IMG/VR virus record: IMGVR_UViG_2778261316_000008
Length of the DNA: 34,102 nt
Origin: a virus
Lineage: Duplodnaviria > Heunggongvirae > Uroviricota > Caudoviricetes
Strand: one strand, 5' to 3'
Shown: piece by piece, positions 1 through 34,102 of the stretch
Position numbering within the stretch: the first letter of the stretch is position 1
Layout: every line of letters starts with the position of its first letter
Position numbers and translations under genes: made by a program
The notes under the pieces: model-generated
Databases searched by the model: none
Told to the model about the DNA's origin: nothing
The model's input: only the letters and a program-made list of their open reading frames with translations

Positions 1-330
1 TCAGTAACCAAACAACGCCCATTTTAGTAGTGCATCTGCATCATTCTTCAAACTTCCAAGGTCTTTTCCTGGTGAAATTGTTGCCGCTACACCAAGCGCA
101 TTAAGTCGAAGCTGTGCCTGATGGAATCGACTCTCTTGCTGTAGGCCCAGAATTTCATTTTTATTCGCGACAGCATAACGCTGAATGGCTGACTTCGATA
201 CGCTGTAACCTTTATCGGCTAACCAGAGCGAGAGCCATTCATAACTGGTGAAGTTTGTGCGCGATAATTCGCTATGAAGCTCGGCACGAACATCCTCTGG
301 CAGTTTATCAATATTGCTTGGTCTGGCCAT
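1..330 (-). CDS. DUF3486-like protein (short paralogue of the gp27-like ORF at 12611-13156)
   Basis: ATG at 330 preceded by AGGAGG; N-terminal ~55 aa (MARxSxIxKLPEDVR...GYxxSKSAIxRY) clearly alignable with the 181-aa ORF at 12611; stop codon at bases 1-3. Confidence 0.6.
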   Translation of the reverse strand: MARPSNIDKLPEDVRAELHSELSRTNFTSYEWLSLWLADKGYSVSKSAIQRYAVANKNEILGLQQESRFHQAQLRLNALGVAATISPGKDLGSLKNDADALLKWALFGY

Positions 331-349
331 CTGTCCTCCTATAAATAGC

Positions 350-739
350 TTAGCTATTTTCCACCTTCTCTGAATCAGAGTCACCATCAAACAGTTTGCC
401 CTGCATCCGATCCAATTCTTCTTTTCTGACCCGCTTCACCACGCTGTAAACCCACTGTAGTGAAACACCGAATTTGCGGGCCAGTTCGTGATGGTTGCGT
501 CCGTCAAACTCCAGGAAGATTTCCCGGTCGCGCTGACTGACCTTCCAGACCATGCCCATCGGAAAATAGACGTTTTGCCCACCCCAGACCTGCATCATGC
601 GGTTCGCGACGGCCTGACCAATCTGGTCGGCAACTGCGGGTTCGATATCAATAATCTCGCGGACGGTCTCAGAGGTATGCTGTGCCAGTTCTACCAACAG
701 TTCCGGCCCTTTACTACGAAACTGATTCAGGTCACTCAT
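350..739 (-). CDS. Mor/C-family transcriptional activator (middle/late gene activator)
   Basis: 129-aa ORF from ATG at 739 (MSDLNQ...); C-terminal region (ELARKFGVSLQWVYSVVKRVR) has the HTH pattern of Mor-family activators; position after GemA-like gene as in Mu. Confidence 0.75.
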   Translation of the reverse strand: MSDLNQFRSKGPELLVELAQHTSETVREIIDIEPAVADQIGQAVANRMMQVWGGQNVYFPMGMVWKVSQRDREIFLEFDGRNHHELARKFGVSLQWVYSVVKRVRKEELDRMQGKLFDGDSDSEKVENS

Positions 740-1164
740 TGCTTCACTCCCGCAGCTCTGCTCTGCCACTTCTTCAGTTTCTCAATCACGCTACTTGCCT
801 GCTCATTGCTGAGCCAGCGTAACGCGCTGATGCCTGTTTCCCGTTTAACCCACAGCGCCAGCGCCTGCTCTGAACTGTCTCGGACGATGCCTGCGGCAGC
901 CATTTCAAGCCATAGCGCACGGATTTTCTTTGACTGCGGATGACTATCCAGCGGTAAGCCGGACCTGGCTTTCCCGGCAGGCTTAATGCGAAAGCCTTTA
1001 TTTTTCATGGATTCCAGCACGCGGTTTAGCTGTGGGGTATCCATCCCTTTGGTTGAGGCTTTGCCGGTCAGCCCCTGTAGCATCTGGCGGTAGGTGTCCT
1101 CATCCATCTGGAGGTCGCTGCGGGCAATATGAATGAGTTGAATAAGACGCTGCTTAGTCATCAT
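736..1164 (-). CDS. GemA-like protein (Mu gp16 family)
   Basis: ATG at 1164 (MMTKQRLIQLIHIARSDL...); motif LIxLIHxA...DDTYR...LxxxTGK resembles Mu GemA/gp16; 4-nt overlap with downstream activator gene. Confidence 0.65.
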   Translation of the reverse strand: MMTKQRLIQLIHIARSDLQMDEDTYRQMLQGLTGKASTKGMDTPQLNRVLESMKNKGFRIKPAGKARSGLPLDSHPQSKKIRALWLEMAAAGIVRDSSEQALALWVKRETGISALRWLSNEQASSVIEKLKKWQSRAAGVKQ

Positions 1165-1369
1165 TGCCACTCCTTTTACCTGCGCCACCGATATAGTCGA
1201 CATATAAAGGAAGCGCAACAGGCCAGCACAGGAACATAACGGCCCAACTGATCCAGTGTCCGGCACCGCTGTAACGTGAGTAAAACCCTGAACGGCGGTG
1301 CAGTTCAGCAGTACACCACCCCACGAGACCATACCAGAACAGGGCACATACAATTGATTCAGCCATCAT
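1154..1369 (-). CDS. small membrane protein (two predicted TM helices)
   Basis: ATGATG start at 1369; hydrophobic segments IVCALFWYGLVGW and WISWAVMFLCWPVALPLYV; 11-nt overlaps with both neighbours suggest translational coupling. Confidence 0.4.
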   Translation of the reverse strand: MMAESIVCALFWYGLVGWCTAELHRRSGFYSRYSGAGHWISWAVMFLCWPVALPLYVDYIGGAGKRSGNDD

Positions 1370-1586
1370 AATGAATACCACCCCAGTTAATATGAATGTT
1401 ACGGGCTGTAGTAACCGGATCGTTATTCCACCATGCACCTGACATGTAATTTTTAACCTGTTCTCGTCCAGCGATAACGCCAATTTGAATGCCGGGCCTT
1501 ACGTTCTTAAAAAAGGCGCGTGCAAAAAGATATTTAGCAGCTGTACGGCAAGGGTTCGGTGCTTTCTTCTTACGCGATAACATCAT
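1359..1586 (-). CDS. hypothetical small basic protein
   Basis: 75-aa ORF with ATG at 1586 overlapping stop of upstream gene; no recognisable domain. Confidence 0.35.
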   Translation of the reverse strand: MMLSRKKKAPNPCRTAAKYLFARAFFKNVRPGIQIGVIAGREQVKNYMSGAWWNNDPVTTARNIHINWGGIHYDG

Positions 1587-2272
1587 CTTTCAGCCCTCAG
1601 TTTATGCTGCTCCTGCCCGCCAACGGGCTGATGCAGGCGGACGTTTTCCCCTTCTCTGTAACCGATGTGGCGGGACATGTCTGCGTCACGTGATTTCCCG
1701 GCCCCACGGCCCGTAGTTGTGCCTGAGTCAGGGTATTTTTGTTCAAGCCAGAGGCTTGCCAGCTCCCGTTCTTCGCGGGACATAGCAAATAAATGAACCT
1801 CGCTGCGCACGGCCAGAACCCAGCCTTCGGCAAATTTGTCACCACGGCTGGTCTTGGTCGTGTTTTTGATTCTTTTATTCTGCTGTCGAATATAGTTTTT
1901 ACGGGCCATGATTAATTGTCTGGCCAGTACCTCCCATGTATATGAGGCCAGTTCAACCCGGTCTTTATTACCGTAAAAGCCAACGCTGGGTTTAAAGCCG
2001 GAGTGAATAATAGACTTAACGCCAAATGCCACCTGGATAATGTCCAGCAGACCCAGCATGTAACGCGGCGGATTAACGCTACCTGCAGCCCAGTAGTTAC
2101 TGACGCTTTCATCAATATCACTGAGTGCGAGGTCAGCCTGGGTGATGTTATAGGCTTGCATCAGTTTCTGGGCGCGTTGCAGTGCCAGTGCCGCTTCATG
2201 GGGGTTATCGGATTTAGCCAGCGCAAGTAGCTTTTTTAACTTCTCCAGCAGCTTTTCATTATTCTGCGGCAT
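1583..2272 (-). CDS. DUF2786-like protein
   Basis: N-terminus KLLEKLKKLLALAKSDNPHEAALALQRAQKLM matches the pattern I associate with DUF2786 proteins; ATG at 2272. Confidence 0.55.
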   Translation of the reverse strand: MPQNNEKLLEKLKKLLALAKSDNPHEAALALQRAQKLMQAYNITQADLALSDIDESVSNYWAAGSVNPPRYMLGLLDIIQVAFGVKSIIHSGFKPSVGFYGNKDRVELASYTWEVLARQLIMARKNYIRQQNKRIKNTTKTSRGDKFAEGWVLAVRSEVHLFAMSREERELASLWLEQKYPDSGTTTGRGAGKSRDADMSRHIGYREGENVRLHQPVGGQEQHKLRAER

Positions 2273-2555
2273 AAGTCACCCCCAGGCGTTCGGCAAGGCG
2301 TTCCAGCTTTTTCTGCTTATGAAAATCAATCATCAGGCCCATTCCGTTGAGGCGGAACTGTTCAATCATGATTTCAACGTCAGCCAGTTCGCCAGCCAGA
2401 TCAACTTCACTTCCCAGTCCGTTCATGTTGCGGGCGGCAGCAGCGGCCAGCTCGGCGGCTTCTTCCATCAGCTTCAGCGCCTGTGCTTCAGGGCCAAAGG
2501 TTTTCAGGGCCAGATTGTATATAGTGGAGCGGTTATATAATTTCATGCCTTTCAT
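2259..2555 (-). CDS. hypothetical protein, possible MazG-like all-alpha NTP pyrophosphohydrolase
   Basis: ATG at 2555 (MKGMKLYN...), ATGA overlap with upstream Zn-ribbon gene; pattern EEAAELAAA...ELADVEIMIEQF...KQKKLERL resembles MazG-type motifs (recall, not searched). Confidence 0.45.
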   Translation of the reverse strand: MKGMKLYNRSTIYNLALKTFGPEAQALKLMEEAAELAAAAARNMNGLGSEVDLAGELADVEIMIEQFRLNGMGLMIDFHKQKKLERLAERLGVTYAAE

Positions 2556-2740
2556 TTTTTTGCCTCGCAGGGGATGAACTCCATGGCCGGAACTTCGGTG
2601 TAGTAATGCTGGCTGCAGTGAGGGCATACCAGCGTGATGAGGACGGCTGGCACATGGTATTTACCAGAGGTAATGACGCTGGCGTCGCTGAACTTCAGGG
2701 TGGTGATACCTTTCTTACAGTTGGAACATTTGATGGACAT
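2552..2740 (-). CDS. small zinc-ribbon protein
   Basis: 62 aa with CxxC (CSNC) and CxxC (CPHC) pairs spaced about 35 residues apart. Confidence 0.5.
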   Translation of the reverse strand: MSIKCSNCKKGITTLKFSDASVITSGKYHVPAVLITLVCPHCSQHYYTEVPAMEFIPCEAKK

Positions 2741-2818
2741 GATTTATTCCTCAATGCTGTTTTCGGCGTGCAGAAGCCCACGGAGCTGACGCCGAAATAA
2801 AAGGAAATTGAATTAAAA

Positions 2819-3430
2819 TTAAATGGCAGCGATATCTAACGGAATATTAATTAGCTTCCCGTGTTTATCTTTCTCCCGGAAATTAATATAGGTTTTGGAC
2901 ATTGCCACCTGCAGTGATTCCGATATGGCCTCCATTGCCCGGTTCCAGCGCTCGTCCTGAATCTTGACGCGGCGCAGGGAAAGAATACGTCCGGTATTAA
3001 GCTGGCCCTCTTTGTCCACCTGAAAAGCATCGCTGATGATGGCCCGCAGGTTGGCGTTCGCGCCTTCCGACCACTCGGTGACGCACTCGTCTATCAGGTC
3101 TTTGGCAATCTGCAGCTCTGGCCCGAAGGTCAGGGTTTCCTGCACGCGGATGGTGATCTGCTGAGCACCGTCGAAGCTGCTGAAGGTCACGTTGCCTTTG
3201 GCACCGCCACGCGTTCTGCCGTACTTCTCGGCCACAAGGTCAAGCCAGGCATAGCACTCGTCAAAGGCACGACGCTTGAAGTCACTGAGTTCATCGCGTT
3301 TAACCTTCGCGGCGACAACCTGTTCTTTAACGAAAGAGTCCATCGCAAGGTCATAGTCAGACACCTGGTCAACCGGCACCAGACGCCCCTTGCGGTCTTT
3401 CATGTAGTTTTCTTTATTTACTTCGCTCAT
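2819..3430 (-). CDS. DUF3164-like protein (common in Mu-like early regions)
   Basis: 203-aa ORF; sequence pattern recalled from Mu-like prophage early-region proteins; assignment from memory. Confidence 0.55.
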   Translation of the reverse strand: MSEVNKENYMKDRKGRLVPVDQVSDYDLAMDSFVKEQVVAAKVKRDELSDFKRRAFDECYAWLDLVAEKYGRTRGGAKGNVTFSSFDGAQQITIRVQETLTFGPELQIAKDLIDECVTEWSEGANANLRAIISDAFQVDKEGQLNTGRILSLRRVKIQDERWNRAMEAISESLQVAMSKTYINFREKDKHGKLINIPLDIAAI

Positions 3431-3447
3431 CTCTGTTCACCTTATGG

Positions 3448-3717
3448 TTAATGTAACGACTCTGACCAGGTAATACGGCAGCCATGCAACTCAAAGACAC
3501 CCTGACGGAAGCGCCCTGAGCCGTCATGGCCAACATGGGTATAACTCGCTTTGCCCTGCTCCAGCAGGCGGGCACAGTGCCCGTTGCGGGCGATACGGAT
3601 AACCGGCTTACTGCCAGCAATCATGACGCTCTGCACGGTAGTGTTCATGGCGTTGAGCGCCATAATGGCGGACTGCACCTTGTTCATCTGCTGGTTGATA
3701 TCGGCGATGGATTTCAT
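3448..3717 (-). CDS. hypothetical protein
   Basis: 89-aa ORF, ATG at 3717 preceded by AAGGAG, immediately downstream of the ATPase stop. Confidence 0.5.
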   Translation of the reverse strand: MKSIADINQQMNKVQSAIMALNAMNTTVQSVMIAGSKPVIRIARNGHCARLLEQGKASYTHVGHDGSGRFRQGVFELHGCRITWSESLH

Positions 3718-3719
3718 GA

Positions 3720-4886
3720 TTAAACTCCTTTGACGACGTCGGCGTTGACCTGCGGGACCCCGATTTCAGCAGCCAGATTCATGGCGGCTATCACCAGGTT
3801 ACTGACGGCCAGCGGATACAGCAGGCTGACCATGCTTTTACGGCTACTACCCAGATTGCTCAGACGGGCGCGGATGGCTTCCACTGCGCTGGCGTCCATG
3901 ATGTCGGCCAGCTGCTTACCGGCACGTTGCAGTTTGAACGTCAGAAACTCTTCGAGGCTGTTGTCCAGCGGCAGCAGTTCAACCACCTCGCAGCGCTGGA
4001 CGACCTCACGGACTTCCATGTTGCGTTCGGACAGTTTGTCCGCCAGTTCAGGCTGGCCAATCAGCACGATGGACAGCAGTTTTTTGAAGCCGGACTCCAG
4101 TTCGAAGAAGCGTTTAAGGTGCTTCAGCGTCGGAATGGGAAGGCTGTGGGCCTCCTCAATCACCAGAACGTGGCTGAAACCCGCCTGACTGCTGTCCTTC
4201 AGGACTCGGTGCAACTGGCGGAAGCGGGCGTCCTGGCTGCGCTTGATACTCTCCAGCGGCGCGATGGTGCTGATGATGGCCTCGGCGATAGCTGCCGCCT
4301 TCAGGGTTTTGCCCTTCACGTCGTTGTCTTCCATGGCGATGATGTATGGCTCGATTACAATCACCGGCGCGTTCTCGCGGTTGACGCGTTCAATCAGGTC
4401 GCGGCGCAGCGTGGATTTACCCGCACCGGACTCGCCGATAACCGCCAGAAAGCCACCATGGCGGGCGGTCTGGAACAGCGCCTCACGCACGTAGCGGATA
4501 TCCGGCGTGGTGAACACATCGTCCGCGCCCTGCATGGCTTCATCGGCGAACGGATCACGGAAAAGGCCAAACGCTTTTTTGGTTGCTGGAAATAACACCT
4601 GCTTTTTGAGTAACATGTTCTCTTCCTCACTGAGGTTGGTTTTATCGGTAGTACCCGCTGTACGGGGCGTGACAGCGCCCTGTGCAGCATCAAAACTTTT
4701 CGCTGTATCAATCCCCTTACTTTCCAGATACAACGCCAGACGCTGGCGTACCTCTTCGGGGCTGGTGCGTGGCCACTCGTTATGGTTCACAATCTGGGCC
4801 AGCGTGGCCTCGGAAACGGCGACGGCTCTTGCCACCACCGCCTGCGGGATGCGGGCCTCTTTCAGTTGTTGCTTCAGTACCAGCAT
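3720..4886 (-). CDS. AAA+ transposition ATPase (MuB/TniB/ExeA-like)
   Basis: Walker A GESGAGKST, Walker B-like hhhVIEEAH; N-terminal HTH-like region; directly downstream of DDE transposase; RBS GGAGGAAGG. Confidence 0.8.
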   Translation of the reverse strand: MLVLKQQLKEARIPQAVVARAVAVSEATLAQIVNHNEWPRTSPEEVRQRLALYLESKGIDTAKSFDAAQGAVTPRTAGTTDKTNLSEEENMLLKKQVLFPATKKAFGLFRDPFADEAMQGADDVFTTPDIRYVREALFQTARHGGFLAVIGESGAGKSTLRRDLIERVNRENAPVIVIEPYIIAMEDNDVKGKTLKAAAIAEAIISTIAPLESIKRSQDARFRQLHRVLKDSSQAGFSHVLVIEEAHSLPIPTLKHLKRFFELESGFKKLLSIVLIGQPELADKLSERNMEVREVVQRCEVVELLPLDNSLEEFLTFKLQRAGKQLADIMDASAVEAIRARLSNLGSSRKSMVSLLYPLAVSNLVIAAMNLAAEIGVPQVNADVVKGV

Positions 4887-4896
4887 GCCTTCCTCC

Positions 4897-6666
4897 TCAG
4901 TTACCGTTAACGATGCTGATAACGCTGTTGCGGGCCGGAGTGGTCAGGGTAACCATCACCTCATCCAGCGCGGCTTCAGGTACGCCATCCGGGTACTGCG
5001 CCGTTAACTGGCGGTAATGTTCCGGCGTCCAGATATGGCCGTTAGCGCCAAACTTCTCGCGCAGGGCTTTCGCCGCCTCCACATGGGTCAGCGGACGCTG
5101 CTCAATACGCGGCCCGCGCACGTCTGAAGCCTGACCGCGCTTCGGCATATAGGCCGGAAGCGTGGTGTCGTCGATATGTTTGTACGGGTCAAGTCGCCCG
5201 CCGAACGGCAGCGCCTTCGCCTTGCGTGCAGCAGCTGCATCGGTGGCGTTATCGGTGCCCGTAACCAGCTCTTCGATTTCTTTTGCCGCCGTCTGCGCCG
5301 GGGTCTCCGGCAGGGCTTTGTAGTTTTCGCCAAATACCGCCGCGCTTTCGGCAAAGCCGAACTCGTTCTTTCTGACCTCCTCGACCAGGAAGAACGTCTC
5401 GTGACCGTCCTCACCGGTCAGCACCACCTGCGCCACATCGCTGCGCCACGGGTTACGGGTAATCATCAGTTTTTCGCCGACCAGTACGCCCGGTACCGTC
5501 GAAACGTCAAACTCATTGCCCCGGAACGAGACGCGCAGTTTTGGTGTGACCTTACGGAGTTCCGGTGCGGCCACCGCCAGTTCGCGGCAAACCTCAACGG
5601 ATGGCGCTTTTTTCAGCTGGTCAGCAGTAATCTTCAGCCAGATATCCGTGCGGGTTTTACCGTGGCGGCTGTGGACCGCCGTGGCGTTAAAGTGGCTGCG
5701 CCATTTCACCGCCAGTGCGTTCAGTTCGTCCAGGCTATGAACCGGCTGGAATTTGAGACCCGGCTCCAGTTTACGTTCGATAATGTCACGGGCCTTTTCC
5801 ACCTGCCCGGTGGCGCGGGCGTTATGCGGCTTGTGCGCTATCAGATTGATGCCCAGCGAGCGGCACATGTTTTTCGTCATGCCAGCGGTGTTCGCCGAAC
5901 CGGGATCAAGGTAGAGTATTTTCGGCACGCCGTGCAGCACGTCCGCGCCGCCGCGCTCCTGCATGGCGTTGATAAGCACAGAACAGAGGTTCTCACCAGA
6001 TTCCGCACCCATCACGTACTCAACGTAAATCCAGCCGCTGGTATGGTCGGTAATCTCGTAACTCCACACGCGGTCACTGGCGATGCGGGCGATGTTGGCA
6101 GGCTTGTTCTTGTAGAACTTCGAGCTGTCCATCACCTGCAACCCTTTATGGCCGTTGCTCAGGTAGTAAAGCGTACAAAGTGAGGCATCAATCTCCCAGA
6201 CGTGATTGGGATGCAGGCTGGCCATCTCGGACGACGGGGCCGGTGCGTCAAGCTGTTCCGGGTGCAGACCATAGTTCCGCAGGGCGCGGCTGATGGTGTC
6301 CTCGGACAGCGGGAAAAACTCGCCTGTGGCCTCGTCCGTTCTGCCAGCAGTGATAAAGCCGTTTGACCGCAGGGTCTCCACCGCATCCGCGATGGAATAC
6401 AGGCGCTTACCGTTCTTACGGGTGGCCTCGCGCAGCGTGGCAGATATCAGCGCGGCTTCGTCGCGGCTCAGGGCACTGCGCCCGGCATCGGCGCGTTTTT
6501 TACGTTTGTCAGTCACTGATACCTCCTTCAGCTTGCGCAGCAGGGTGGCGCGGGAAATGCCCAGTTCGGCGCAGGCGGCATCATATATCGCACCACGCTT
6601 ACCATGCCCCGCGTCACGTGCCGCGCGGGCAACATAAACCAGTCGTTCAGTCAGGGCGGCACTCAT
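4897..6666 (-). CDS. DDE transposase (Mu A-like / rve integrase core)
   Basis: 589 aa; N-terminal HTH, integrase-core-like region (HPNHVWEIDAS...LYLDPGSANTA...) and C-terminal Mu-transposase-like region; RBS AGGAGG before ATG at 6666. Confidence 0.85.
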   Translation of the reverse strand: MSAALTERLVYVARAARDAGHGKRGAIYDAACAELGISRATLLRKLKEVSVTDKRKKRADAGRSALSRDEAALISATLREATRKNGKRLYSIADAVETLRSNGFITAGRTDEATGEFFPLSEDTISRALRNYGLHPEQLDAPAPSSEMASLHPNHVWEIDASLCTLYYLSNGHKGLQVMDSSKFYKNKPANIARIASDRVWSYEITDHTSGWIYVEYVMGAESGENLCSVLINAMQERGGADVLHGVPKILYLDPGSANTAGMTKNMCRSLGINLIAHKPHNARATGQVEKARDIIERKLEPGLKFQPVHSLDELNALAVKWRSHFNATAVHSRHGKTRTDIWLKITADQLKKAPSVEVCRELAVAAPELRKVTPKLRVSFRGNEFDVSTVPGVLVGEKLMITRNPWRSDVAQVVLTGEDGHETFFLVEEVRKNEFGFAESAAVFGENYKALPETPAQTAAKEIEELVTGTDNATDAAAARKAKALPFGGRLDPYKHIDDTTLPAYMPKRGQASDVRGPRIEQRPLTHVEAAKALREKFGANGHIWTPEHYRQLTAQYPDGVPEAALDEVMVTLTTPARNSVISIVNGN

Positions 6667-6669: not shown

Positions 6670-7578
6670 TTATGCCTCCTGCCCGTTAATCTCTGGCGTC
6701 GGGTCAGTCAGCCATGAAGGGGCGGCGTTGCCTGTCGGCTCGTCCGGCAGGTCAAATGTGGAGCGCAGGCTACGCGCGGTGCTTTCCAACTGGCAGACCA
6801 GACCGGCCATAAAGTCTCTGGGGGTATCAATCATATTTTCAGCACAGTATGCGCACAGGGTCTCAAAGGCGCTGGACAGTCGAACGGCGATGGCAGATTC
6901 CGCCTCAACCGCTAACGCTGTAACTTCCGCACGCAGCTTCTTCACCTCTTCGTCAGGCTTGGGCGGCTGGATACGGGATTTCTTCTCCAGTTTTGTGGAG
7001 AGCGAGTCGATTTTTTCGTTTTTGTCGGCAAGCACGCGCTGTTGTGCTGCGTTGGTTTCACGCGCTTCGCGTAGGGCCGCTTTCAGTTCGCGGCTTGTCA
7101 TGCGATCAATATCATCGAGGCTCATACCAGCAATCGTGCCGCCATCGGCTAATTCGACGAGGTCTTCGTCATCTTCCGTCATCAACTCAAACAGCTTTGT
7201 TTTACCCAAAAGCGCAAGCGCTTGCGCTTTTGGTTCAAGCTTGGGAGACAAATATTTGAGGGATGCTTGCATCATCACCTGCGCGGTACGTTTGGATAGG
7301 GACAACTGAGACTCAACGATGTCGATGAAGTCACCATGTGGTTCATTTTCTTTGAGAATTACCAGTCGTTTACCCGCCTCCAGCATGGCTTCAGCACTCT
7401 GAGCCATATAAAAACGTGTTTCATGGACAATACGATCACGTTCATACGGCAGGCCATCACCAAACTGCTGCATGATTTCGAGGCGATGTTCGGACATAGC
7501 ATTAAGACTGACACTGAGACCATCGGTCAGCGGTGCATCTTCCACTAGTTCAACTGGTTGTGATTTTGTGCGTCCCAT
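6670..7578 (-). CDS. hypothetical coiled-coil protein
   Basis: 302-aa ORF between the wHTH gene and the transposase; charged/coiled-coil central region; no confident family. Confidence 0.55.
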   Translation of the reverse strand: MGRTKSQPVELVEDAPLTDGLSVSLNAMSEHRLEIMQQFGDGLPYERDRIVHETRFYMAQSAEAMLEAGKRLVILKENEPHGDFIDIVESQLSLSKRTAQVMMQASLKYLSPKLEPKAQALALLGKTKLFELMTEDDEDLVELADGGTIAGMSLDDIDRMTSRELKAALREARETNAAQQRVLADKNEKIDSLSTKLEKKSRIQPPKPDEEVKKLRAEVTALAVEAESAIAVRLSSAFETLCAYCAENMIDTPRDFMAGLVCQLESTARSLRSTFDLPDEPTGNAAPSWLTDPTPEINGQEA

Positions 7579-23496: not shown

Positions 23497-23501
23497 AATC
23501 C

Positions 23502-23539: not shown

Positions 23540-23564
23540 TCTGAACTTACACAGGAGCACGATC

Positions 23565-23982: not shown

Positions 23983-24074
23983 CGACTCATCACTTAACAG
24001 CCGCCCCTCGCGGCTGTTCTGCATGGCTCTCAGACATTTTCCTTCCGTTTTTCCGCTTTCAGAGGATAACAACC

Positions 24075-27424: not shown

Positions 27425-27636
27425 TGTTTCTTGAACATGTTACCCGTGACGGAGAGCGCTGGGACTCTCTGGCATGGCAGTACTACGGCGACCCACTGGG
27501 CTATCCCCGGATAATTGCCGCCAATCCGCACGTGGCCATTACGCCGGTGCTGCCCTCCGGGCTGTTGTTACTGATCCCGGTTATCGAGGCTGAAGAAGCC
27601 ACCACAGAAGAGGATATTGCCCCATGGCTGAGATAA
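27424..27636 (+). CDS. tail protein X-like (gpX family)
   Basis: 70 aa, WDSLAWQYYGDP motif typical of P2 gpX-like proteins. Confidence 0.6.
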   Translation: MFLEHVTRDGERWDSLAWQYYGDPLGYPRIIAANPHVAITPVLPSGLLLLIPVIEAEEATTEEDIAPWLR

Positions 27637-28793
27637 ACAGCACTGCACAGGTCGCATCAGCGTTAACCGGCGTCAGCGATGTTCTGAGTCCGGTGTTCAC
27701 GCTGTGGTATCTGCAGAAGAACATCACCACCGATATCGCCCCCTATGTCACCCGCGTAACCTACAGCGATAACATCAAAAGCGAGTCCGATACCATTGAG
27801 GTGGAGCTGGACGACACCGATGGCCGCTGGCTGGATAAGTGGTATCCGGGCAAGGGTGACACGCTGACGCTGAAAATGGGTTATCAGGGCGAGAAGCTGC
27901 TGTCCTGTGGTACGTTCTCGATAGACGAGATCGAGGTGAGTTCGCCCGCGTCCGTTGTCGCTATCCGGGGCGTGGCCACGTCGGTCAACAACGCCCTGCG
28001 GACAAAATCCAGTCGTGGTTTCGAGAGCACCACGCTGGCGGCTATAGCCGGACGGATTGCCAAAAAGCATCAGCTGAAGCTGGTTGGCAGTATTGAGTCC
28101 ATCAAAATTGACCGGGTGACCCAGTATGCTGAAACGGACGTGGGCTTCCTGCGTCGACTGGCCAGCGAGTATGGTTATGCCGTGAAAGTGGTCAGCGACC
28201 AGCTGATTTTCTCTCATCTGGCCACGCTGCGCGATCAGGAGCCGGTAAAACAGTTGAAGCCACAGGATGTGGCCAGCTTTTCCCTGCGTGACACCATCAA
28301 CCGCGTCTACAAATCCGCAAAGGTAAAACACCAGAAGAGCAGCGATAAAAAGCTGATCGTCTACGAAGCTGATGGCGGTACCAGCGAAAGCGACAAACAA
28401 ACCAAAGGCGGTAAGGTCACCAGTGCCGACTCACTGAAGGTCAACAGCCGCGTCAGTGATCCGGACAGCGCCCGGATTAAAGCAGATTCGGCGCTGGCCA
28501 GGCATAACGAATACCAGCAGAACGGCTCGCTGTCGCTGATGGGGACGCCTCAGTTGACTGCAGGCAACAAAATTGAACTGGTGGGTTTTGGTCAGTTATC
28601 CGGGCCATGGCTGATAACTACTGCCCGCCATGCGTTTGACCGTAACAGCGGCTACATCACCGAACTGGAAGTGGCACGAGGGCCGGTTACGCAGGGCAAA
28701 GCGAAGAAAGGTAAAAAGACCGGAAAAACCCAGACGCTGACCGTCTATAAACCGGACGGCAGCACGTCCACGGTAATAAAGGAGAAAAAATAA
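27624..28793 (+). CDS. tail/baseplate hub protein (Mu P-like, late control D family)
   Basis: 389 aa; position between gpX-like and spike. Confidence 0.75.
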   Translation: MAEINSTAQVASALTGVSDVLSPVFTLWYLQKNITTDIAPYVTRVTYSDNIKSESDTIEVELDDTDGRWLDKWYPGKGDTLTLKMGYQGEKLLSCGTFSIDEIEVSSPASVVAIRGVATSVNNALRTKSSRGFESTTLAAIAGRIAKKHQLKLVGSIESIKIDRVTQYAETDVGFLRRLASEYGYAVKVVSDQLIFSHLATLRDQEPVKQLKPQDVASFSLRDTINRVYKSAKVKHQKSSDKKLIVYEADGGTSESDKQTKGGKVTSADSLKVNSRVSDPDSARIKADSALARHNEYQQNGSLSLMGTPQLTAGNKIELVGFGQLSGPWLITTARHAFDRNSGYITELEVARGPVTQGKAKKGKKTGKTQTLTVYKPDGSTSTVIKEKK

Positions 28794-29305
28794 TGGCAGG
28801 CGTCACCCGTCAGGTCGGTACGGTCAGCGCCGTCGATGCCGACAAGGTTCAGGCCCGCGTTCGTCTGCCTGAGTGCGATAACCTGCGCACTAACTGGCTT
28901 AACGTACTGCAGCGCAACACCCAGGATAACAAGGATTACTGGCTACCTGACGTGGGGGAGCAGGTTGAGGTGCTGCTCGATGCCAACGGCGAGGATGGTG
29001 TCATTCTGGGCGCGGTGTATTCAGACGTCGATAAGCCACCGTTCAGCGACAAAAACGTCCGGGGCACGAAATACGCGGATGGCGCAGAGTTCAGCTATAA
29101 CCGCGCGACCCATACGCTGACGGTCAAAGGTGGTATCGAGCGCGTAGTAATCGAGGTTGCGGTAGGTATCAGCCTGAAGGGGAAAACCATTGATTTGACC
29201 GCTGACACCACCACGGTGAACGGCAACCTTGAAATCAACGGCAATGCCCACTCCACAGGCAGCATGCTCTCTGACGGCCAGAACTCCAATCATCACTCCC
29301 ACTGA
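28793..29305 (+). CDS. baseplate spike protein (gpV-like)
   Basis: 170 aa, AAGGAG RBS, position. Confidence 0.7.
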   Translation: MAGVTRQVGTVSAVDADKVQARVRLPECDNLRTNWLNVLQRNTQDNKDYWLPDVGEQVEVLLDANGEDGVILGAVYSDVDKPPFSDKNVRGTKYADGAEFSYNRATHTLTVKGGIERVVIEVAVGISLKGKTIDLTADTTTVNGNLEINGNAHSTGSMLSDGQNSNHHSH

Positions 29306-29317
29306 CCTTCTTAAACG

Positions 29318-29355
29318 CCTTTAATATCGGCGTTCCCGCACAGGGGCAATACTGC
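29318..29355 (+). promoter_or_regulatory. candidate activator-dependent late promoter element (copy 2)
   Basis: CCTTTAATATCGG-N18-ATACTGC, matching the block at 23502-23539. Confidence 0.45.
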
Positions 29356-29359
29356 CCCC

Positions 29360-29707
29360 ATGAAAACAACTTCCGTATTCTGGCAACCGGCCCTGCAGGC
29401 CCCTGGCGAAATCGTCCGGGGGCTGGATGATATCTGGCAGGCCATTCAAATCATCCTGCGAACTCCTCGCGGCAGCGACCCGCATCGCCCGGAGTTCGGC
29501 AGCAACCTGCATCTTTATATCGACTGGCCCATCGACCGGGCTATCCCACATGTGGTGCGCGAGTCCGTTGATGCCATCCGGCGCTGGGAGCCTCGCTGCC
29601 AGCTTATGTCGGTTAAACCCGCCGTCGACGGTGAACATCTTACGCTCCGGGTGAGCTGGAAAGGCTCTGACGGACAGCCCCGGACTCAGGAGCTTTTATG
29701 GTGCTGA
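29360..29707 (+). CDS. baseplate wedge protein (GPW/gp25-like)
   Basis: 115 aa; IWQAIQIILRTPRGSDPHRPEFGSNLHLYI pattern typical of GPW/gp25 family. Confidence 0.75.
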   Translation: MKTTSVFWQPALQAPGEIVRGLDDIWQAIQIILRTPRGSDPHRPEFGSNLHLYIDWPIDRAIPHVVRESVDAIRRWEPRCQLMSVKPAVDGEHLTLRVSWKGSDGQPRTQELLWC

Positions 29708-30801
29708 CAGAACCCGATTTTATTGAACGCGATGCCGACAAAATCACGGCTGAAATGATTGCTCAGTACGAAGCCGCAACCGGCAAGACGCTGTACCCCG
29801 CCCAGGCTGAGCGCCTGTTGATTGACCTGTGGGCATACCGCGAAATGCTGGTCAGGGTAGCGGCGCAGGAAGCGGCCAAACAGAATCTGGTCGCCTTTGC
29901 CCGTGAGCCGATGATTGATTACCTCGGTGAACTGGTCGGTGTTTACCGCCTTGCCGCGCAGCCTGCCACCACCACTCTCCAGTTCTCCGTGGATGAGGCA
30001 CTGGCCATTGATGTGCTGATTCCGGCAGGCACCCGCGTCAGCGCTTCCGACAGCATTATTTTTGCCACCGATACGGACGTGGTGCTGAAAGCCGGATTGC
30101 TTCTGGTCAATGCCACGGCCACCTGTACCGAACCGGGAGCCGCTGGCAATGGCTGGCAACCTGCGCAGGTCAGTCAGTTGCTCGATGAGATTGATAACGT
30201 CGACCTGCAGGTGACCAATCTGATGGCAAGTTCTGGCGGTTCAGAGCAGGAAGACAATGACAGGCTCCGCGAGCGTATCAAACTGGCCCCGGAGTCATTC
30301 ACCAACGCCGGAAGCCGTATGGCATACCGCTTTCATGCCATGCAGGCCCATCCCAACATCGTCGACGTCGCTGTGCTCTCCCCGGTTCCCGGCACCGTAG
30401 AACTGTATCCGCTGCTCAGTACCGGCCTGCCGGAGGACAGCATCCTTACGCTGGTAGAGAGTTTCTGCTTGGACGAAAAAGTCAGGCCGCTCACTGACAC
30501 CGTGCGGGCTAAAACACCTGTGCAGGTGGATTACGCCATTGAAGCCAACATCACTATCTATCGTGATCAGGATGCCAACTCGATAAAGGACAACGCCAAC
30601 AGCGCCATACAGAACTGGGTGGCGTCCCGTACCGCCACGCTGGGGCGCGATATTGTCCCCAGTCAGATTATCAGCGTGCTGTCCGTTGCCGGAGTGTATC
30701 AGGTCGAACTGGTGACACCAGTGCTGAAGGTAGTGGCAGAAAACGAATGGGCAAACTGTACGGCGATCACTCTTAACATGACCGGGGTGTCCGATGGCTG
30801 A
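29698..30801 (+). CDS. baseplate J-like protein
   Basis: 367 aa following GPW-like gene with overlap. Confidence 0.8.
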   Translation: MVLTEPDFIERDADKITAEMIAQYEAATGKTLYPAQAERLLIDLWAYREMLVRVAAQEAAKQNLVAFAREPMIDYLGELVGVYRLAAQPATTTLQFSVDEALAIDVLIPAGTRVSASDSIIFATDTDVVLKAGLLLVNATATCTEPGAAGNGWQPAQVSQLLDEIDNVDLQVTNLMASSGGSEQEDNDRLRERIKLAPESFTNAGSRMAYRFHAMQAHPNIVDVAVLSPVPGTVELYPLLSTGLPEDSILTLVESFCLDEKVRPLTDTVRAKTPVQVDYAIEANITIYRDQDANSIKDNANSAIQNWVASRTATLGRDIVPSQIISVLSVAGVYQVELVTPVLKVVAENEWANCTAITLNMTGVSDG

Positions 30802-31372
30802 GCCGCTACAACTCCCGCCACCGCTTGAGGGTGATATCAGTCTCAGAACGCTGGGAAGACTCGCCGGGCGGCTGGATAACATCGACCTGAGCGTACTGAT
30901 GGTCTATCTCGTCGATATTGTCGACAGTTCCGCGCTGCCATGGCTGGGCGAGCAGTTCTCACTGTTCGGCGATGGCTGGGAGCTGGCGGAATCTGACGAT
31001 GTACGCCGCATGCTTATCAAATCCGCTATCGAGCTGCACCGCTACAAAGGGACGCCGTGGTCAATCAGGGAAATTATCCGCCGTTTCGGCTTCGGCGAAG
31101 TGGATCTGATTGAAGGCACTGGCCAGATTGGCTACGACGGCAAACACACTTACAACGGGCTTTTCGTTCATGGCGATGCGGAAGCCTGGGCGGTATATCG
31201 CGTCATCCTTCAACAGCCCATCACTAACGATCAGGCGGCGCTGTTACGCCAGACGCTCGCTGCTTTTGCTCCGGCCCGCTGCCATCTGGCAAGCCTGGAG
31301 TATCAGTCTGTCGCCATTCGCTACAACAACACCGTCAACTATGACGGCAGCTATAACCACGGGAGCAGTTAA
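30794..31372 (+). CDS. tail protein (P2 gpI-like / Mu gp48-like)
   Basis: 192 aa, position between baseplate J and tail fibre. Confidence 0.65.
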   Translation: MAEPLQLPPPLEGDISLRTLGRLAGRLDNIDLSVLMVYLVDIVDSSALPWLGEQFSLFGDGWELAESDDVRRMLIKSAIELHRYKGTPWSIREIIRRFGFGEVDLIEGTGQIGYDGKHTYNGLFVHGDAEAWAVYRVILQQPITNDQAALLRQTLAAFAPARCHLASLEYQSVAIRYNNTVNYDGSYNHGSS

Positions 31373-31374
31373 TT

Positions 31375-32208
31375 ATGGCAAACCTACCTGAAACCCCGCA
31401 GTGGGAAGAAGGCATCTACCAGATTGAGGTCTCTGACCCCGTTCTGGGTGGGCCTGACGGAATCTCTAACCGTCAGGGTAAACAACTGGCCAGCCGCACG
31501 CTGTACCTGAAGCAACAGGTTGAAAAAGGCGGTTCTGAACTTGCGAAACACATCGCGGCAGCAGACCCGCATACCCAGTACGCACCGAAAGCCAGCCCGA
31601 CATTCACCGGCACGCCAACAGCGCCTACGCCTGCAAATAGTGATAACAGCAAGAAGCTGGCGACGACAGAGTTTGTGGCCAAAGCACTTGCGGCGCTTGC
31701 TGGCAGCGCTCCTGAGACGCTGGATACGCTCAAAGAGCTGGCTGATGCCCTCGGCAACGATCCGAATTTTGCGACCACGGTGTTGAACAAGCTGGCGGAA
31801 AAGCTGGCCAAAGACCAGCACGGCGCAGATATTCCTGACCCGGCGCTCTTTGTCAAAAACCTTGGTTTGGGAGAATCGAAGTATGTAATTAAACGGGGAA
31901 CAAATGCTAATGGCGCCTGGATTATCTGGTCAGATGGAGCAGTCGAAGTTTTTGGTTCTGCCGTAACAATTGTTGATGGACTTGCGACAGTAACGTTTCC
32001 AGTGCAGCTTCCTGCTGTGACGAGAAATATTTCTATTGCAGAACGCATATCGCAAGACCCTGGAGTATCACCAGCATCAAACCCGATGCACGTATCAATA
32101 GTAATTGATAACACCGTCACTACGACTGGCTTTAAGGCCCGTTGTGTTATGGCGTCGGGCATGGCTTCATCGAATGGTTTTTCCTGGAGGGTATATGCGC
32201 CTGTTTAA
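31375..32208 (+). CDS. tail fibre protein S (constant N-terminus + variable C-terminus, current orientation)
   Basis: 277 aa; gix-like crossover site lies inside codons for KNLGLG (aa ~160); C-terminal ~115 aa encoded in AT-richer invertible DNA. Confidence 0.75.
   Translation: MANLPETPQWEEGIYQIEVSDPVLGGPDGISNRQGKQLASRTLYLKQQVEKGGSELAKHIAAADPHTQYAPKASPTFTGTPTAPTPANSDNSKKLATTEFVAKALAALAGSAPETLDTLKELADALGNDPNFATTVLNKLAEKLAKDQHGADIPDPALFVKNLGLGESKYVIKRGTNANGAWIIWSDGAVEVFGSAVTIVDGLATVTFPVQLPAVTRNISIAERISQDPGVSPASNPMHVSIVIDNTVTTTGFKARCVMASGMASSNGFSWRVYAPV
31853..31870. repeat. hix/gix-like recombination site (left inverted repeat)
   Basis: TCAAAAACCTTGGTTTGG; 14-bp core AAAAACCTTGGTTT is the perfect reverse complement of 33441-33454. 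Confidence 0.7.
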
Positions 32209-32380
32209 TCCGAAAATGTTAACTGAGGTTATTCCTGGATTTCATGACACCACTGATGCAATTGAATTGCCGGATGACAACTGGTTTTTCACAACAACTG
32301 AAATACCTGAAGGGAAAATACTCGCCGCAAATGAACGCGGCGAGCCCGTTCTGATTGATATTACTGTCCCGGAGGAGTAG
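32195..32380 (+). CDS. small ORF downstream of S (possible short or truncated tail fibre assembly protein)
   Basis: 61 aa from ATG 32195 with GGAGGG RBS, 14-nt overlap with S; no clear Tfa C-terminal domain. Confidence 0.35.
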   Translation: MRLFNPKMLTEVIPGFHDTTDAIELPDDNWFFTTTEIPEGKILAANERGEPVLIDITVPEE

Positions 32381-32957
32381 GCCAAATAATAACCGGTGCG
32401 CTGGCGGTGTCAACGCCCTCCAGCGCATCCAGATAATCAAGCCAGGCATTATATTGTTCTTTTTCTGCGTCCTTCAGGCGACCCATTGCTGCTTTACCAG
32501 GCCATTGCTTACCATTCATAAAGTCATTGGCCTGGCTAATCAGCGCCTGTAGTTTTGTTGCCGCCACAGAAATATCATATGCGCGCTGAGCTTCGGGATC
32601 GGCAACCCATTTATTACCATCCCATTTATCAAACTTTGTAGTTGGTGCTTCAAAAGTAAAGCCTTCACGCAACGGTCCAATATATTCGATAGTCACCGGC
32701 TTCCCGTTACTGGTGGTGTATGCTGTTTCTCCACGATGGTCTTCTTTAAGCACCCACTCAGATCCAGAAAAAATAAATACCTTCCCTCCTGCTTCGGCCC
32801 CTGGTTCTATCGCCGTAGAGCATCCGGGCATACTGACACCGATGTTAATAAACTCGTCAGACCATCCCATATATTCAGAAGTCACAGCGTCGTAGTAATA
32901 ACAGCGGATTTCACCCGGTTCTGTTGCCAGTCCGTTTACATCGAAAACAGGTTTCAT
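32361..32957 (-). CDS. tail fibre assembly protein (Tfa/U'-like)
   Basis: 198 aa; EDHRGETAY...GPLREGFT...KWDGNKWVADPEA matches conserved Tfa region. Confidence 0.75.
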   Translation of the reverse strand: MKPVFDVNGLATEPGEIRCYYYDAVTSEYMGWSDEFINIGVSMPGCSTAIEPGAEAGGKVFIFSGSEWVLKEDHRGETAYTTSNGKPVTIEYIGPLREGFTFEAPTTKFDKWDGNKWVADPEAQRAYDISVAATKLQALISQANDFMNGKQWPGKAAMGRLKDAEKEQYNAWLDYLDALEGVDTASAPVIIWPTPPGQ

Positions 32958-33472
32958 TATTTAGCCCTTACAAGAAAGTTGAATGCAATATTTCTTGGGC
33001 GGCTTTCCGTGGATGTTCTGGCAACCCTCGATAAATCAAAATTGAATGTAGAAGTTGATACGGTTCCGCCTGGTGCCGGGGGGGCCAGATTGCCCTGAAC
33101 AACGCTGCGAGAAAATACCCCCAACGCATCTGTATTTACCCCTGTATAAAGATCAACGAGATAACCAGTAACATTCTGAATGGCGTCTCCCTGCGGTGAA
33201 AGCAGGGTTCGCCCATTATCTATCCCACGTCCATCATCCCAGACACGCAGAAACTCTCCTCGCAGATCTGGCAATTTCAGGCCCGGCCAAACAAGGGCCA
33301 ATTTTGGGTAAGTGGTAGGGGAAAATGTTGAGTCGTTAAACTTAAGGAACACCATGTCGGCCCATTCCGGCATCACGGTATTTGGCATGGCAGAAGACGG
33401 CCAAAAAAATGGAACTCCTATCGGTGGTGCACCTGCTCCTAAACCAAGGTTTTTGGAAAAGCAGTTACACAT
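32957..33472 (-). CDS. alternative tail fibre C-terminal segment (S'v)
   Basis: Begins ...FSKNLGLG at the right gix-like site (same KNLGLG as in S); C-terminus ...TESRPRNIAFNFLVRAK matches P2 H / Mu S-type fibre tips. Confidence 0.7.
   Translation of the reverse strand: MCNCFSKNLGLGAGAPPIGVPFFWPSSAMPNTVMPEWADMVFLKFNDSTFSPTTYPKLALVWPGLKLPDLRGEFLRVWDDGRGIDNGRTLLSPQGDAIQNVTGYLVDLYTGVNTDALGVFSRSVVQGNLAPPAPGGTVSTSTFNFDLSRVARTSTESRPRNIAFNFLVRAK
33439..33456. repeat. hix/gix-like recombination site (right inverted repeat)
   Basis: CTAAACCAAGGTTTTTGG; core AAACCAAGGTTTTTG is identical to the core of hixL as I recall it (TTCTTGAAAACCAAGGTTTTTGATAA). Confidence 0.7.
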
Positions 33473-33520
33473 AGAGAAATCTGCAAAAATCCTCCCACTA
33501 TGATGTGAAGGAGGAAATTG

Positions 33521-34102
33521 ATGGCCGTTATTGGTTATATCCGCGTATCAACAATCGACCAGAACAGCGATTTGCAGCGTAATGCACTCACAAGCGCAAA
33601 CTGTGACCGCATTTTTGAAGACCGTATGAGTGGAAAAGTTGCCAGTCGCCCTGGTCTTAAAGGCGCTTTAAAGTGCATTAATAGCGGAGACACCCTGGTA
33701 GTGTGGAAACTGGACAGGCTGGGACGTAGCGTTAAGAACCTGATTGCACTCATATCAGAGTTACATGAACGTGGTGCCCACTTCCGCTCTTTAACAGACA
33801 GTATTGATACCAGCACTGCCATGGGGCGCTTCTTTTTCCATGTAATGTCGGCATTGGCGGAGATGGAGCGCGAGCTAATTGTCGAACGGACACTGGCCGG
33901 GCTGGCAGCAGCCAGAGCACAGGGACGCGTAGGTGGAAGGCCCAACGCATTAAAAACCCATGAGCGAGAGCAGATTGGGCGGCTATTGACGAAGGGGCAC
34001 ACCCGCCAGCAGCTGGCAATTATCTACGGTGTAGGGTTATCGACGCTTTACCGATACTTTCCGGTGGATGGTCATAGGAAGGATAACGCAGCAGGAATGT
34101 AA
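33521..34102 (+). CDS. gin: Gin/Hin/Pin-family serine DNA invertase
   Basis: 193 aa; GYIRVSTIDQN with catalytic Ser, VWKLDRLGRS, C-terminal HTH (GRPNALKTHEREQIGRLL...LSTLYRY); GGAGGA RBS; stop is the last codon of the window. Confidence 0.9.
   Translation: MAVIGYIRVSTIDQNSDLQRNALTSANCDRIFEDRMSGKVASRPGLKGALKCINSGDTLVVWKLDRLGRSVKNLIALISELHERGAHFRSLTDSIDTSTAMGRFFFHVMSALAEMERELIVERTLAGLAAARAQGRVGGRPNALKTHEREQIGRLLTKGHTRQQLAIIYGVGLSTLYRYFPVDGHRKDNAAGM

Follow-up and report, generated by a model that had tools for sequence, protein, structure and literature searches.

BcepMu, a transposable phage of Burkholderia, carries its genes in two clusters, with genes 1–13 lying on the bottom strand, 17–52 on the top (Lavigne et al. 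2009, PMC2771037). It moves by replicative transposition and has random host DNA on both ends of its virion DNA, a transposase unlike MuA, a P2-like tail and a terminal CA (PMC2771037, where the genome is cited from Summer et al. 2004); TG/CA ends and host DNA on virion ends are treated in PMC2628397 as well. SalMu of S. Typhi, PhotoMu and ChromoMu have been named as relatives (PMC3417384), and in the Burkholderia phage KS10 modules lie on opposite strands around the immunity switch (PMC2628397). Here we analyse a stretch of 34,102 nucleotides, virus record IMGVR_UViG_2778261316_000008 (Caudoviricetes), referred to below at its full length as the window. We conclude, with a probability of roughly 0.94, that it carries all the genes of one BcepMu-type transposable myovirus prophage of Escherichia coli. 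The element is real and complete-looking; its layout and lineage have already been described, and the sequence itself is already public.

Two arms compared with BcepMu, Mu and KS10

All 15 genes left of position 8114 are on the minus strand and form an unbroken block from 8114 down to 1, with intergenic gaps of at most 78 bp. The plus-strand arm starts at 8203 and runs through repressor, lysis, head and tail genes to an invertase, as judged from open reading frames (ORFs), Pfam and PHROGs. It has two strand exceptions only, a Dam methylase gene at 9230–10000 and the alternative fibre and assembly genes at 32361–33472, which are part of an invertible segment. Cumulative GC skew has its minimum at 7–8 kb and rises afterwards, coinciding with the strand switch. 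The sequence-only reading, made from the letters before any database search, had put the early genes on the minus strand from about 8114 and the others on the plus strand from 8203, which is right within a few bases. The two-arm layout that it named for BcepMu and SalMu agrees with the published description (PMC2771037) and with the protein comparison given below. The remark that in Mu only the repressor diverges holds for c, which is divergent in the Mu record, but gp15 and the G(-) genes diverge there too. The features on which the comparison turns are the following.

350–739, minus strand: Mor/C-family transcription activator, the sole one in the window (Pfam Mor, 1e-42)
736–1164, minus strand: homologue of GemA (Mu gp16) (Pfam GemA, 6.4e-41; 47% identical to BcepMu gp02, 37% to Mu GemA)
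3720–4886, minus strand: transposition ATPase, functional analogue of MuB (Pfam AAA_22, 3.3e-20; 60% identical to BcepMu gp08; phrog_296)
4897–6666, minus strand: DDE transposase of the BcepMu/rve type (68% identical to BcepMu gp09; Pfam rve, 31.4 bits)
8115–8202, between the arms: divergent control region of 88 bp with an early-promoter-like site on the minus strand
8203–8613, plus strand: CI/Cro-type repressor, the first rightward gene (Pfam HTH_3, 5.8e-11, and Phage_CI_repr; 37% identical to BcepMu gp17 over 49 aa)

The protein sets of BcepMu (51 proteins) and Mu (53 proteins) were compared with the window by tblastn. Matches were found for 38 of the 51 BcepMu proteins, strictly collinear and on the same strands, at 27–79% identity and all full length; among them are the transposase (68%), ATPase (60%), large terminase subunit TerL (62%), portal (61%) and sheath (79%). 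In the BcepMu record (NC_005882) genes 1–16 occupy the bottom strand (Mor, GemA through ATPase and transposase to a helix-turn-helix, HTH, gene) and genes 17–52 the top. As in the window, the leftward set thus listed includes Mor, GemA, DUF3164, ATPase, transposase, gp10 and gp12 in that order, and the rightward one repressor, lysis genes, the terminase subunits TerS and TerL, portal, F, G, head and P2-type tail. The likeness extends to the ends, which have TGA first and a pair of G(A/C)GATAWWT repeats in the same places, and to box motifs before the lysis, head and baseplate operons. The pairing of an rve-type (Tn552/IS1604-like) transposase with a gp08-type ATPase is also present. Taking layout, the transposase/ATPase pair, termini, the many insertion sites and the combination of head and tail together, we place the element among BcepMu-like phages in the broad sense.

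About nine of the 53 Mu proteins match the window (GemA, Mor/C, TerL, portal, F, G, Gin and two marginal ones), while MuA, MuB, c, Ner, the Mu tail proteins and Mom have no significant tblastn match in it. Mu (NC_000929) resembles the window element in being a transposable myovirus with TG...CA ends, GemA, Mor/C regulators, a Mu-type terminase, portal, F and G, a central G–I intergenic gap and a G-segment-like inversion, with a Gin homologue 69% identical. It differs in that its early operon is co-linear with the late genes, whereas the early block of the window is reversed. Where Mu has MuB and a DD55E transposase, MuA, whose enhancer-binding N-terminus recurs in the c repressor, the window has a DD35E transposase and a CI-type repressor. 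Mor and C are separate in Mu, which also has a Mu-type tail and mom; the window has a single Mor/C, a P2-type tail and no mom. The target duplication of Mu is 5 bp and that of the window element 6 bp. By its transposition proteins, the orientation of its early operon and the length of its duplication the element stands outside Muvirus, with which it shares an invertible G segment and Gin. The repressor diverges from the early operon as it does in Mu, the early operon reading to the left end and the repressor toward the late genes; compared with Mu, the whole immunity-plus-early block is opposite relative to the ends and the late genes. KS10 is arranged differently again: its repressor side carries lysis, terminase and portal genes, and the opposite side the early, head and tail genes.

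Residues D160, D254 and E290 of the transposase are invariant in an alignment of 21 homologues, and the distance of 36 residues between the second D and the E is the DD35E pattern of the rve superfamily; the catalytic residues of MuA, D269, D336 and E392 (DD55E), are spaced differently. Pfam finds no Mu-specific domains in the window transposase. Its match to phrog_310 starts at profile position 129, that of MuA at position 6, and MuA residues 3–61 also match a repressor PHROG; it is suggested that the window transposase lacks the enhancer/operator-binding N-terminal domain of MuA. The partner ATPase shares phrog_296 ('DNA transposition protein') with MuB. Sequence searches of the PDB gave weak retroviral-integrase core matches for the transposase and generic P-loop matches for the ATPase, with no MuA, MuB, TnsB or TnsC.

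Ends, spread of the layout and rival explanations

Contig NMEQ01000029.1 (assembly GCA_002542525.1) is 100% identical to the window over 1–6330 and 21375–34102 (19 kb compared), with collinear coordinates, and it extends past both ends. Its element starts with TGATTAGACG (shorter form TGATTAGAC) 139 bp left of the window and ends with GGCGCATCA 78 bp to the right. The full element thus measures 34,319 bp, of which the window is short by 217 bp of non-coding sequence. The earlier remark that the termini are outside the window was correct; completeness, which it had taken to be beyond judgement, can be judged. The TG...CA tips and flanking duplication that it expected in extended sequence were found, with a duplication of 6 bp instead of 5 bp. 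In NMEQ01000029.1 this is ACCAAC, and the copy interrupts ynjE. When the empty site was rebuilt from the flanks and one ACCAAC (300 nt), it equalled intact ynjE at 100%, and of 5,426 E. coli genomes 5,424 match this rebuilt sequence without a break.

Six further E. coli prophages occupy six other sites: a yihT-like aldolase gene, the napH/napB junction, adiA, the yjfY–ulaF intergenic region, csgC and barA. Each has TG...CA tips, and their duplications are GCGCAT, TCATGA, GTAGCT, GTTTCG, GACAAT and ATTCAT, so that the duplication is 6 bp in 7/7 copies and different at each of the seven sites. In five of the seven cases a host gene is interrupted, and its two parts lie on either side of the entire two-arm unit. 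The window contains no internal copy of the termini, even at 5 mismatches in 20, and no second transposase, repressor or Mor. Since one duplication brackets both arms at seven sites and internal termini are absent, the two arms must travel together.

The motif G(A/C)GATA(A/T)(A/T)T is found at nucleotides 12–20 and 35–43 from each tip, inverted between the ends, one copy having a single mismatch. The BcepMu ends carry it at the identical four positions, and we regard these repeats as candidate transposase binding sites. Termini and repeated motifs are outside the window and were read from the 100%-identical contig and the six relatives.

Megablast recovered nearly the entire window from KP12_2 (97.9%), Phi06_2974 B (96%), PhiKM (85%) and E. 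coli chromosomes (up to 99.6–99.9%); PhiKM (PQ738613), a phage isolate, is filed under Bcepmuvirus in GenBank. This enterobacterial BcepMu-like set (SalMu, PhiKM, Phi06_2974 B, KP12_2 and Ecol_542-type prophages) shares gene order and strands at 85–99.9% nucleotide identity over most of the length. Its members differ in a mosaic way, in the repressor allele, a Gp27-N ORF, a small gene of 217 bp, DUF2441 or other inserts before the holin, and the fibre cassettes. Related copies are present in 649 of 5,426 complete E. coli genomes (∼12%), and the transposase–ATPase region in 640 of them. More than 160 near-full-length E. coli matches are all on one strand across the arm junction.

For a wider survey of the layout, a transposase scan with one genome per species gave 60 loci, with identities down to 35%, which were searched by tblastn with 18 window proteins. 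They come from gamma- and betaproteobacteria (Enterobacterales, Burkholderiales, Neisseriales, Rhodocyclales, Nitrosomonadales, Pseudomonas, Rheinheimera, Lysobacterales and others). Of 294 early markers, 294 share the strand of the transposase; 49 loci extend as far as late genes, and in 48 of these the late markers are upstream and on the opposite strand. The sole exception is a Methylophilaceae metagenome-assembled genome (locus L055, 1–21704), where holin and endolysin follow GemA co-linearly and protease, capsid and a Mu-type sheath diverge. Its transposase is of the same family, 50% identical, and homologues of Mu Gam and HU are present. This locus and KS10 show that transposable phages are evolutionarily plastic in how their modules are oriented about the immunity switch.

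Several observations were made on the side. In some E. coli genomes the early region has matches at up to 3 places, and the tail region at up to 8. Many genomes of sequence type ST131 (O25b:H4) carry a transposase–ATPase pair about 89% identical, which covers only 59% of the early-region query. The KP12_2 record (OM835952.1, locus L003) is labelled part of a Klebsiella Vequintavirinae phage and holds a BcepMu-type genome whose tips are short by about 43 and 55 bp; an induced prophage that was purified along with the phage is the probable source, which would make the record mis-filed. Two independent samples, GCA_036619395.1 (L076) and SRR33441988 (L077), contain a deletion derivative that joins window position 2627 to 28597. 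It has kept the left tip and lost transposase, ATPase, repressor, lysis, head and most tail genes.

A number of points weigh against our reading of the window. At the nucleotide level BcepMu or phiE255 match 6% of its first 25 kb, at 74–75% identity (megablast). ICTV genus practice is about 70% nucleotide identity over full length, and by that strict measure the element would fall outside the genus Bcepmuvirus. BcepMu is without Gin, an invertible fibre cassette and Dam, all of which the window has; it carries acyltransferase, HU and SSB-like genes instead, and its host is Burkholderia. Homology between the window transposase and MuA is ambiguous: both are taken in by phrog_310, yet BLASTP gives E = 3.1, hhalign a probability of 0.2% and tblastn no match in the window, and the relation would be one of analogy, or of remote homology at most. 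The late-promoter pattern described below was derived from the window's own sites, its independent support being recurrence in BcepMu and relatives only. The plus-orientation tail-fibre assembly (tfa) gene encodes only 61 aa, against 146 aa in the close relative Ecol_542.

This last point bears on the rival that survives best, namely that we are looking at a defective, immobile remnant and not a functional prophage. One fibre assembly gene is truncated, and deletion derivatives of the same element exist elsewhere (L076 and L077). We nevertheless consider a remnant unlikely: all 38 conserved BcepMu-type genes are full length, near-identical copies (up to 99.6–99.9%) at many sites imply recent transposition, and very similar sequences have been recovered as phage records (KP12_2, Phi06_2974 B, PhiKM).

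Considerably less probable is a true Mu (Muvirus) relative with an early region recently inverted, or inverted by misassembly. Such an origin would account for the Mu homologues of Mor, GemA, TerL, portal, F, G and Gin. It leaves MuA, MuB, c, Ner and all Mu tail proteins without a significant match, requires a duplication of 5 bp where there are 6, and is at odds with the identical layout in many independent complete genomes and distant taxa.

The early block and the late arm might also be two different mobile elements lying head to head, a transposon-like early unit beside a P2-like/Mu-like late prophage, which the sequence-only reading had set as the finding that would overturn it. In the window Mu-type packaging and head genes (Pfam Phage_Mu_Gp27, Portal_Mu, Phage_Mu_F) are indeed joined to tail genes of the P2 type (Phage_tube, Phage_P2_GpU, Phage_GPD, Baseplate_J, Tail_P2_I), and GC content falls to 44–49% at the arm junction (8–10 kb). 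We regard this origin as refuted. A single 6-bp duplication and one TG...CA pair enclose both arms at all seven sites, in five of them between the halves of a host gene, and the window has neither internal termini nor a second set of transposase, repressor or Mor. The BcepMu phage genome and 48 of 49 related loci have the same joint layout, and P2 integrase, cos and P2 capsid genes are missing from the window.

That the early block is itself a programmed invertible segment, with co-linear and divergent forms coexisting in the population, is scarcely credible: the element does encode an invertase that inverts its fibre cassette, but the sole crossover-site pair flanks 31848–33461, the more than 160 E. 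coli matches read on one strand across the junction, and 48 of 48 divergent loci share the same relative orientation. A single BcepMu-type prophage remains our reading. A tRNA scan found 0 tRNA genes in the window, which fits a transposable rather than a site-specifically integrating phage, though on its own it is not informative.

Control region, candidate late promoters and proposed working

In the 88-bp control region a promoter scan (score 11/12) found a leftward sigma-70-like site with –35 TTGACA at 8186–8181, a 16-nt spacer and –10 TACAAT at 8164–8159; it gave no convincing plus-strand promoter for the repressor. As operator repeats the region offers a single weak 21-nt direct repeat, from which we draw no claim. 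Repressor identity ranges over 34–99% among prophages (loci L006–L052) whose neighbouring early genes are 96–100% identical to the window, and because of this spread immunity is a mosaic trait of the group. Three features lie at or near this end of the rightward arm and beyond the repressor.

8649–9182, plus strand: predicted lipoprotein with an LSGC lipobox (translation; phrog_10002)
9230–10000, minus strand: DNA adenine methylase, Dam (Pfam MethyltransfD12, 1.1e-27; RefSeq 'DNA adenine methylase' in the identical E. coli copy)
10248–10598, plus strand: holin (Pfam Holin_2-3, 1.5e-41; 54% identical to BcepMu gp21)

The lipoprotein gene is directly 3' of the repressor, in a low-GC (44%) part of the element. 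Its position would allow expression in the lysogen, which makes it a candidate for an exclusion or moron gene. Between Dam and holin relatives carry varying inserts, for example a DUF2441 gene in CFSAN051542.

The four largest gaps before operons in the plus arm contain an 18-nt box of the pattern YTAANSSNSWTTAAWAKC with a hexamer nAnnCT exactly 19 nt downstream.

10180–10222, plus strand: candidate late promoter 1, lysis, before the holin (box TTAACGCTGTTTAAAATC, 19 nt, GATGCT)
17577–17619, plus strand: candidate late promoter 2, head, before protease/scaffold (box CTAAAGCAGATTAAAAGC, 19 nt, CAGACT)
23495–23537, plus strand: candidate late promoter 3, tail, before chaperone and tape measure (box TTAATCCCCTTTAATATC, 19 nt, CATACT)
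29311–29353, plus strand: candidate late promoter 4, baseplate, before gpW (box TTAAACGCCTTTAATATC, 19 nt, AATACT)

The window has these 4 exact matches only, each of them intergenic and on the plus strand; a terminator-like hairpin at 23472–23494 directly precedes the third. At up to 2 mismatches there is one extra box match only, inside the invertase gene, with 0.77 expected by chance. A narrower initial pattern had found two sites only, and for its short version about one is expected by chance; what led us to retain the motif was that the longer pattern came up again in orthologous BcepMu gaps, at 11485 (holin gap), 18812 (protease gap) and 30774 (V–W gap), where 0.15 matches are expected. 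The narrower form recurs 5' of the holin in many related loci, and among relatives the lysis box is conserved there while its flanks have diverged. The box would lie at about –35 to –52 from the likely start, which resembles the site of Mor/C action in Mu; Mor and C in Mu act at a comparable position upstream of the start. We therefore speak of four candidate Mor-dependent late promoters, a dependence suggested by position and motif. The G–protease gap (17436–17649), which holds the second box, is at 51% of element length, the relative position of the G–I gap of Mu. The G–I gap contains Mu's central strong gyrase site.

The Mor gene at 350–739 is 53% identical to BcepMu gp01, and both Mu Mor and Mu C match this locus only (tblastn). 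Next to it, the leftward arm ends in a small gene.

1–330, minus strand: small ORF of 109 aa (Pfam Phage_Mu_Gp27, 3.6e-14, profile positions 1–53 only; phrog_426)

This last gene of the arm, downstream of Mor and adjoining the left tip, is a variable accessory gene. Residues 1–52 of its product are 52% identical to residues 1–52 of TerS (Gp27) of the same phage, the N-terminal HTH, and the remainder is unrelated. It is missing from Ecol_542-type copies otherwise 99.6% identical, and the exact protein was found on 12 contigs. The product may be a packaging-site or exclusion factor. A prophage of Iodobacter (locus L034, about 16729) has a 38%-identical counterpart after Mor.

From these elements a working scheme can be proposed. 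In the lysogen the CI-type repressor (8203–8613) would shut the promoter-like leftward site. Upon induction one leftward transcript of about 8 kb, as the tight gene packing suggests, would carry the Ner-like and winged-helix regulators, the DUF3102 protein, transposase, its AAA+ partner and accessory genes, with GemA and Mor last. The transposase would bind the paired end repeats and insert with a 6-bp stagger at essentially random targets. The ends, repeats, 6-bp duplications and seven sites were observed directly, and binding and replicative transposition are inferred from BcepMu. Mor, the sole Mor/C homologue and made last, would switch on the four rightward promoters for lysis, head, tail and baseplate, giving a shortened cascade from early operon to Mor to four late operons. 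The Mu-type TerS/TerL would package integrated copies by headful, and the Gin-type invertase would flip the 1.6-kb fibre cassette as a host-range switch, for which the sites, the invertase and orientation polymorphism among relatives were observed.

One might go further and see in the reversed early block more than a neutral rearrangement, namely a control logic unlike that of Mu. With a CI-type repressor, transposition would be untied from a left-end operator/enhancer, a single distal Mor would time four late promoters directly, and the optional TerS-N paralogue might act as a packaging-site regulator or decoy. We find this idea doubtful.

Gene content, fibre switch and significance

The right end of the element is occupied by a fibre cassette and its invertase.

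31375–32208, plus strand: tail fibre in its current orientation (55% identical to BcepMu gp52 over 143 aa)
31848–33461, no strand: invertible tail-fibre segment of 1.6 kb, like the G segment of Mu, with 26-nt inverted crossover sites at 31848–31873 and 33436–33461
32195–32380, plus strand: short tfa, 61 aa, an ORF inside the segment
32361–32957, minus strand: Tfa', an ORF inside the segment
32957–33472, minus strand: alternative fibre C-terminus, an ORF inside the segment
33521–34102, plus strand: serine DNA invertase of the Gin/Hin family (Pfam Resolvase, 4.4e-46, and HTH_7; 69% identical to Mu Gin)

The crossover inverted repeat is 88% complementary. Its core CAAAAACCTTGGTTT is kept in inverted orientation in 7/7 relatives (six E. 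coli and KP12), and the homology of these seven to the window stops exactly at the crossover sites, the inner cassettes being different. On the left side the constant N-terminal part of the fibre ends at the crossover site (about 31860), and homology to relatives stops at 31875–31878. One inner cassette fragment occurs in both orientations among relatives. With a serine invertase adjoining a segment with inverted 26-bp sites, alternative fibre C-termini and assembly genes, the element has a system of the Gin/Hin/Cin/Pin type, and the enterobacterial lineage joins a BcepMu backbone to a host-range switch of the Mu/P1 type.

The minus-orientation assembly gene has its full length. At the DNA level it shares 98.9% identity with the region for tail-fibre assembly and fibre in mEp213 and mEp043, which are lambdoid phages; fibre cassettes are therefore exchanged between unrelated phage types. 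The 5' part of the invertase gene contains an 18-nt inverted repeat (33580–33597 and 33663–33680) and a box-like sequence at 33668–33685. This fifth box-like match, with one mismatch, was rejected as a promoter for its position inside the gene. Gin/Hin systems have a Fis-dependent recombinational enhancer in the 5' part of the invertase gene.

The other genes of the leftward arm are small or accessory; the block at 1154–2740 matches PHROGs 6436, 3681, 2245 and 3401.

1154–2740, minus strand: accessory early genes, with small proteins at 1154–1369 and 1359–1586 and a small Cys-rich protein at 2552–2740
1583–2272, minus strand: DUF2786/DUF7168 protein (Pfam)
2259–2555, minus strand: MazG-like protein (Pfam/PHROGs)
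2819–3430, minus strand: DUF3164 protein, homologue of BcepMu gp05 (Pfam DUF3164, 7.4e-80; 44% identical)
3448–3717, minus strand: small early protein (phrog_2041, 3e-33)
6670–7578, minus strand: DUF3102 protein, homologue of BcepMu gp10 (Pfam DUF3102; phrog_1748, 4.5e-133; 40% identical)
7588–7893, minus strand: winged-helix regulator, homologue of BcepMu gp12 (Pfam HTH_IclR, 1.2e-6; 35% identical)
7890–8114, minus strand: small HTH protein in the Ner/Cro position, the first leftward gene (weak HTH_35; phrog_8503 and phrog_769, 'transcriptional repressor')

The rightward arm continues after the holin with lysis, packaging, head and tail genes. The P2-type tail genes at 23565–29305 are 29–57% identical to BcepMu gp41–gp48, and the baseplate genes gpW, gpJ and gpI are 54–64% identical to gp49–51.

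10598–11335, plus strand: SLT endolysin (Pfam SLT; 60% identical to BcepMu gp22)
11325–11978, plus strand: Rz-like protein/lipoprotein (27% identical to BcepMu gp23)
11975–12611, plus strand: two small conserved proteins, homologues of BcepMu gp25 and gp26 (48% and 58% identical)
12611–13156, plus strand: TerS, Mu Gp27 (Pfam Phage_Mu_Gp27, 2.9e-56; 67% identical to BcepMu gp27)
13153–14676, plus strand: TerL (62% identical to BcepMu gp28, 48% to Mu gp28)
14676–16172, plus strand: portal (Pfam Portal_Mu, 1.7e-91; 61% identical to BcepMu)
16153–16974, plus strand: Mu F-like protein (Pfam Phage_Mu_F)
16977–17435, plus strand: Mu G-like protein (Pfam Phage_tail_S)
17650–18747, plus strand: protease/scaffold of the head module (RefSeq names)
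18761–19714, plus strand: major capsid protein of the head module
17650–21244, plus strand: whole head module, including DUF2190 and gp36-, gp37- and gp38-like genes (45–52% identical to BcepMu gp32–gp38)
21234–22661, plus strand: tail sheath (Pfam Phage_sheath_1 and 1C; 79% identical to BcepMu gp39)
22658–23182, plus strand: tail tube (Pfam Phage_tube, 1.1e-54; 68% identical to BcepMu gp40)
23185–23466, plus strand: small protein after the tail tube
23565–23982, plus strand: tail assembly chaperone E/E' (Pfam Phage_TAC_7)
24075–26540, plus strand: tape measure (Pfam PhageMin_Tail)
26540–27424, plus strand: gpU (Pfam Phage_P2_GpU)
27424–27636, plus strand: gpX of the P2-type tail
27624–28793, plus strand: gpD (Pfam Phage_GPD)
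28793–29305, plus strand: gpV (Pfam Phage_base_V)
29360–29707, plus strand: gpW (Pfam GPW_gp25)
29698–30801, plus strand: gpJ (Pfam Baseplate_J, 4.2e-68)
30794–31372, plus strand: gpI (Pfam Tail_P2_I)

As a discovery the layout carries little weight, having been in the literature since the BcepMu genome papers, with near-identical prophages annotated in RefSeq. For annotation, the analysis provides an intact-looking BcepMu-type prophage in ynjE with exact ends, a 6-bp duplication, a Gin-type switch and four candidate late promoters. Slightly beyond routine annotation are the 6-bp duplication, the geometry of the end repeats, the four boxes common to BcepMu and the optional TerS-N paralogue. 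The automatic label "Mu-like" hides a lineage that is unlike Mu in its transposition proteins, target duplication, tail and regulatory wiring.

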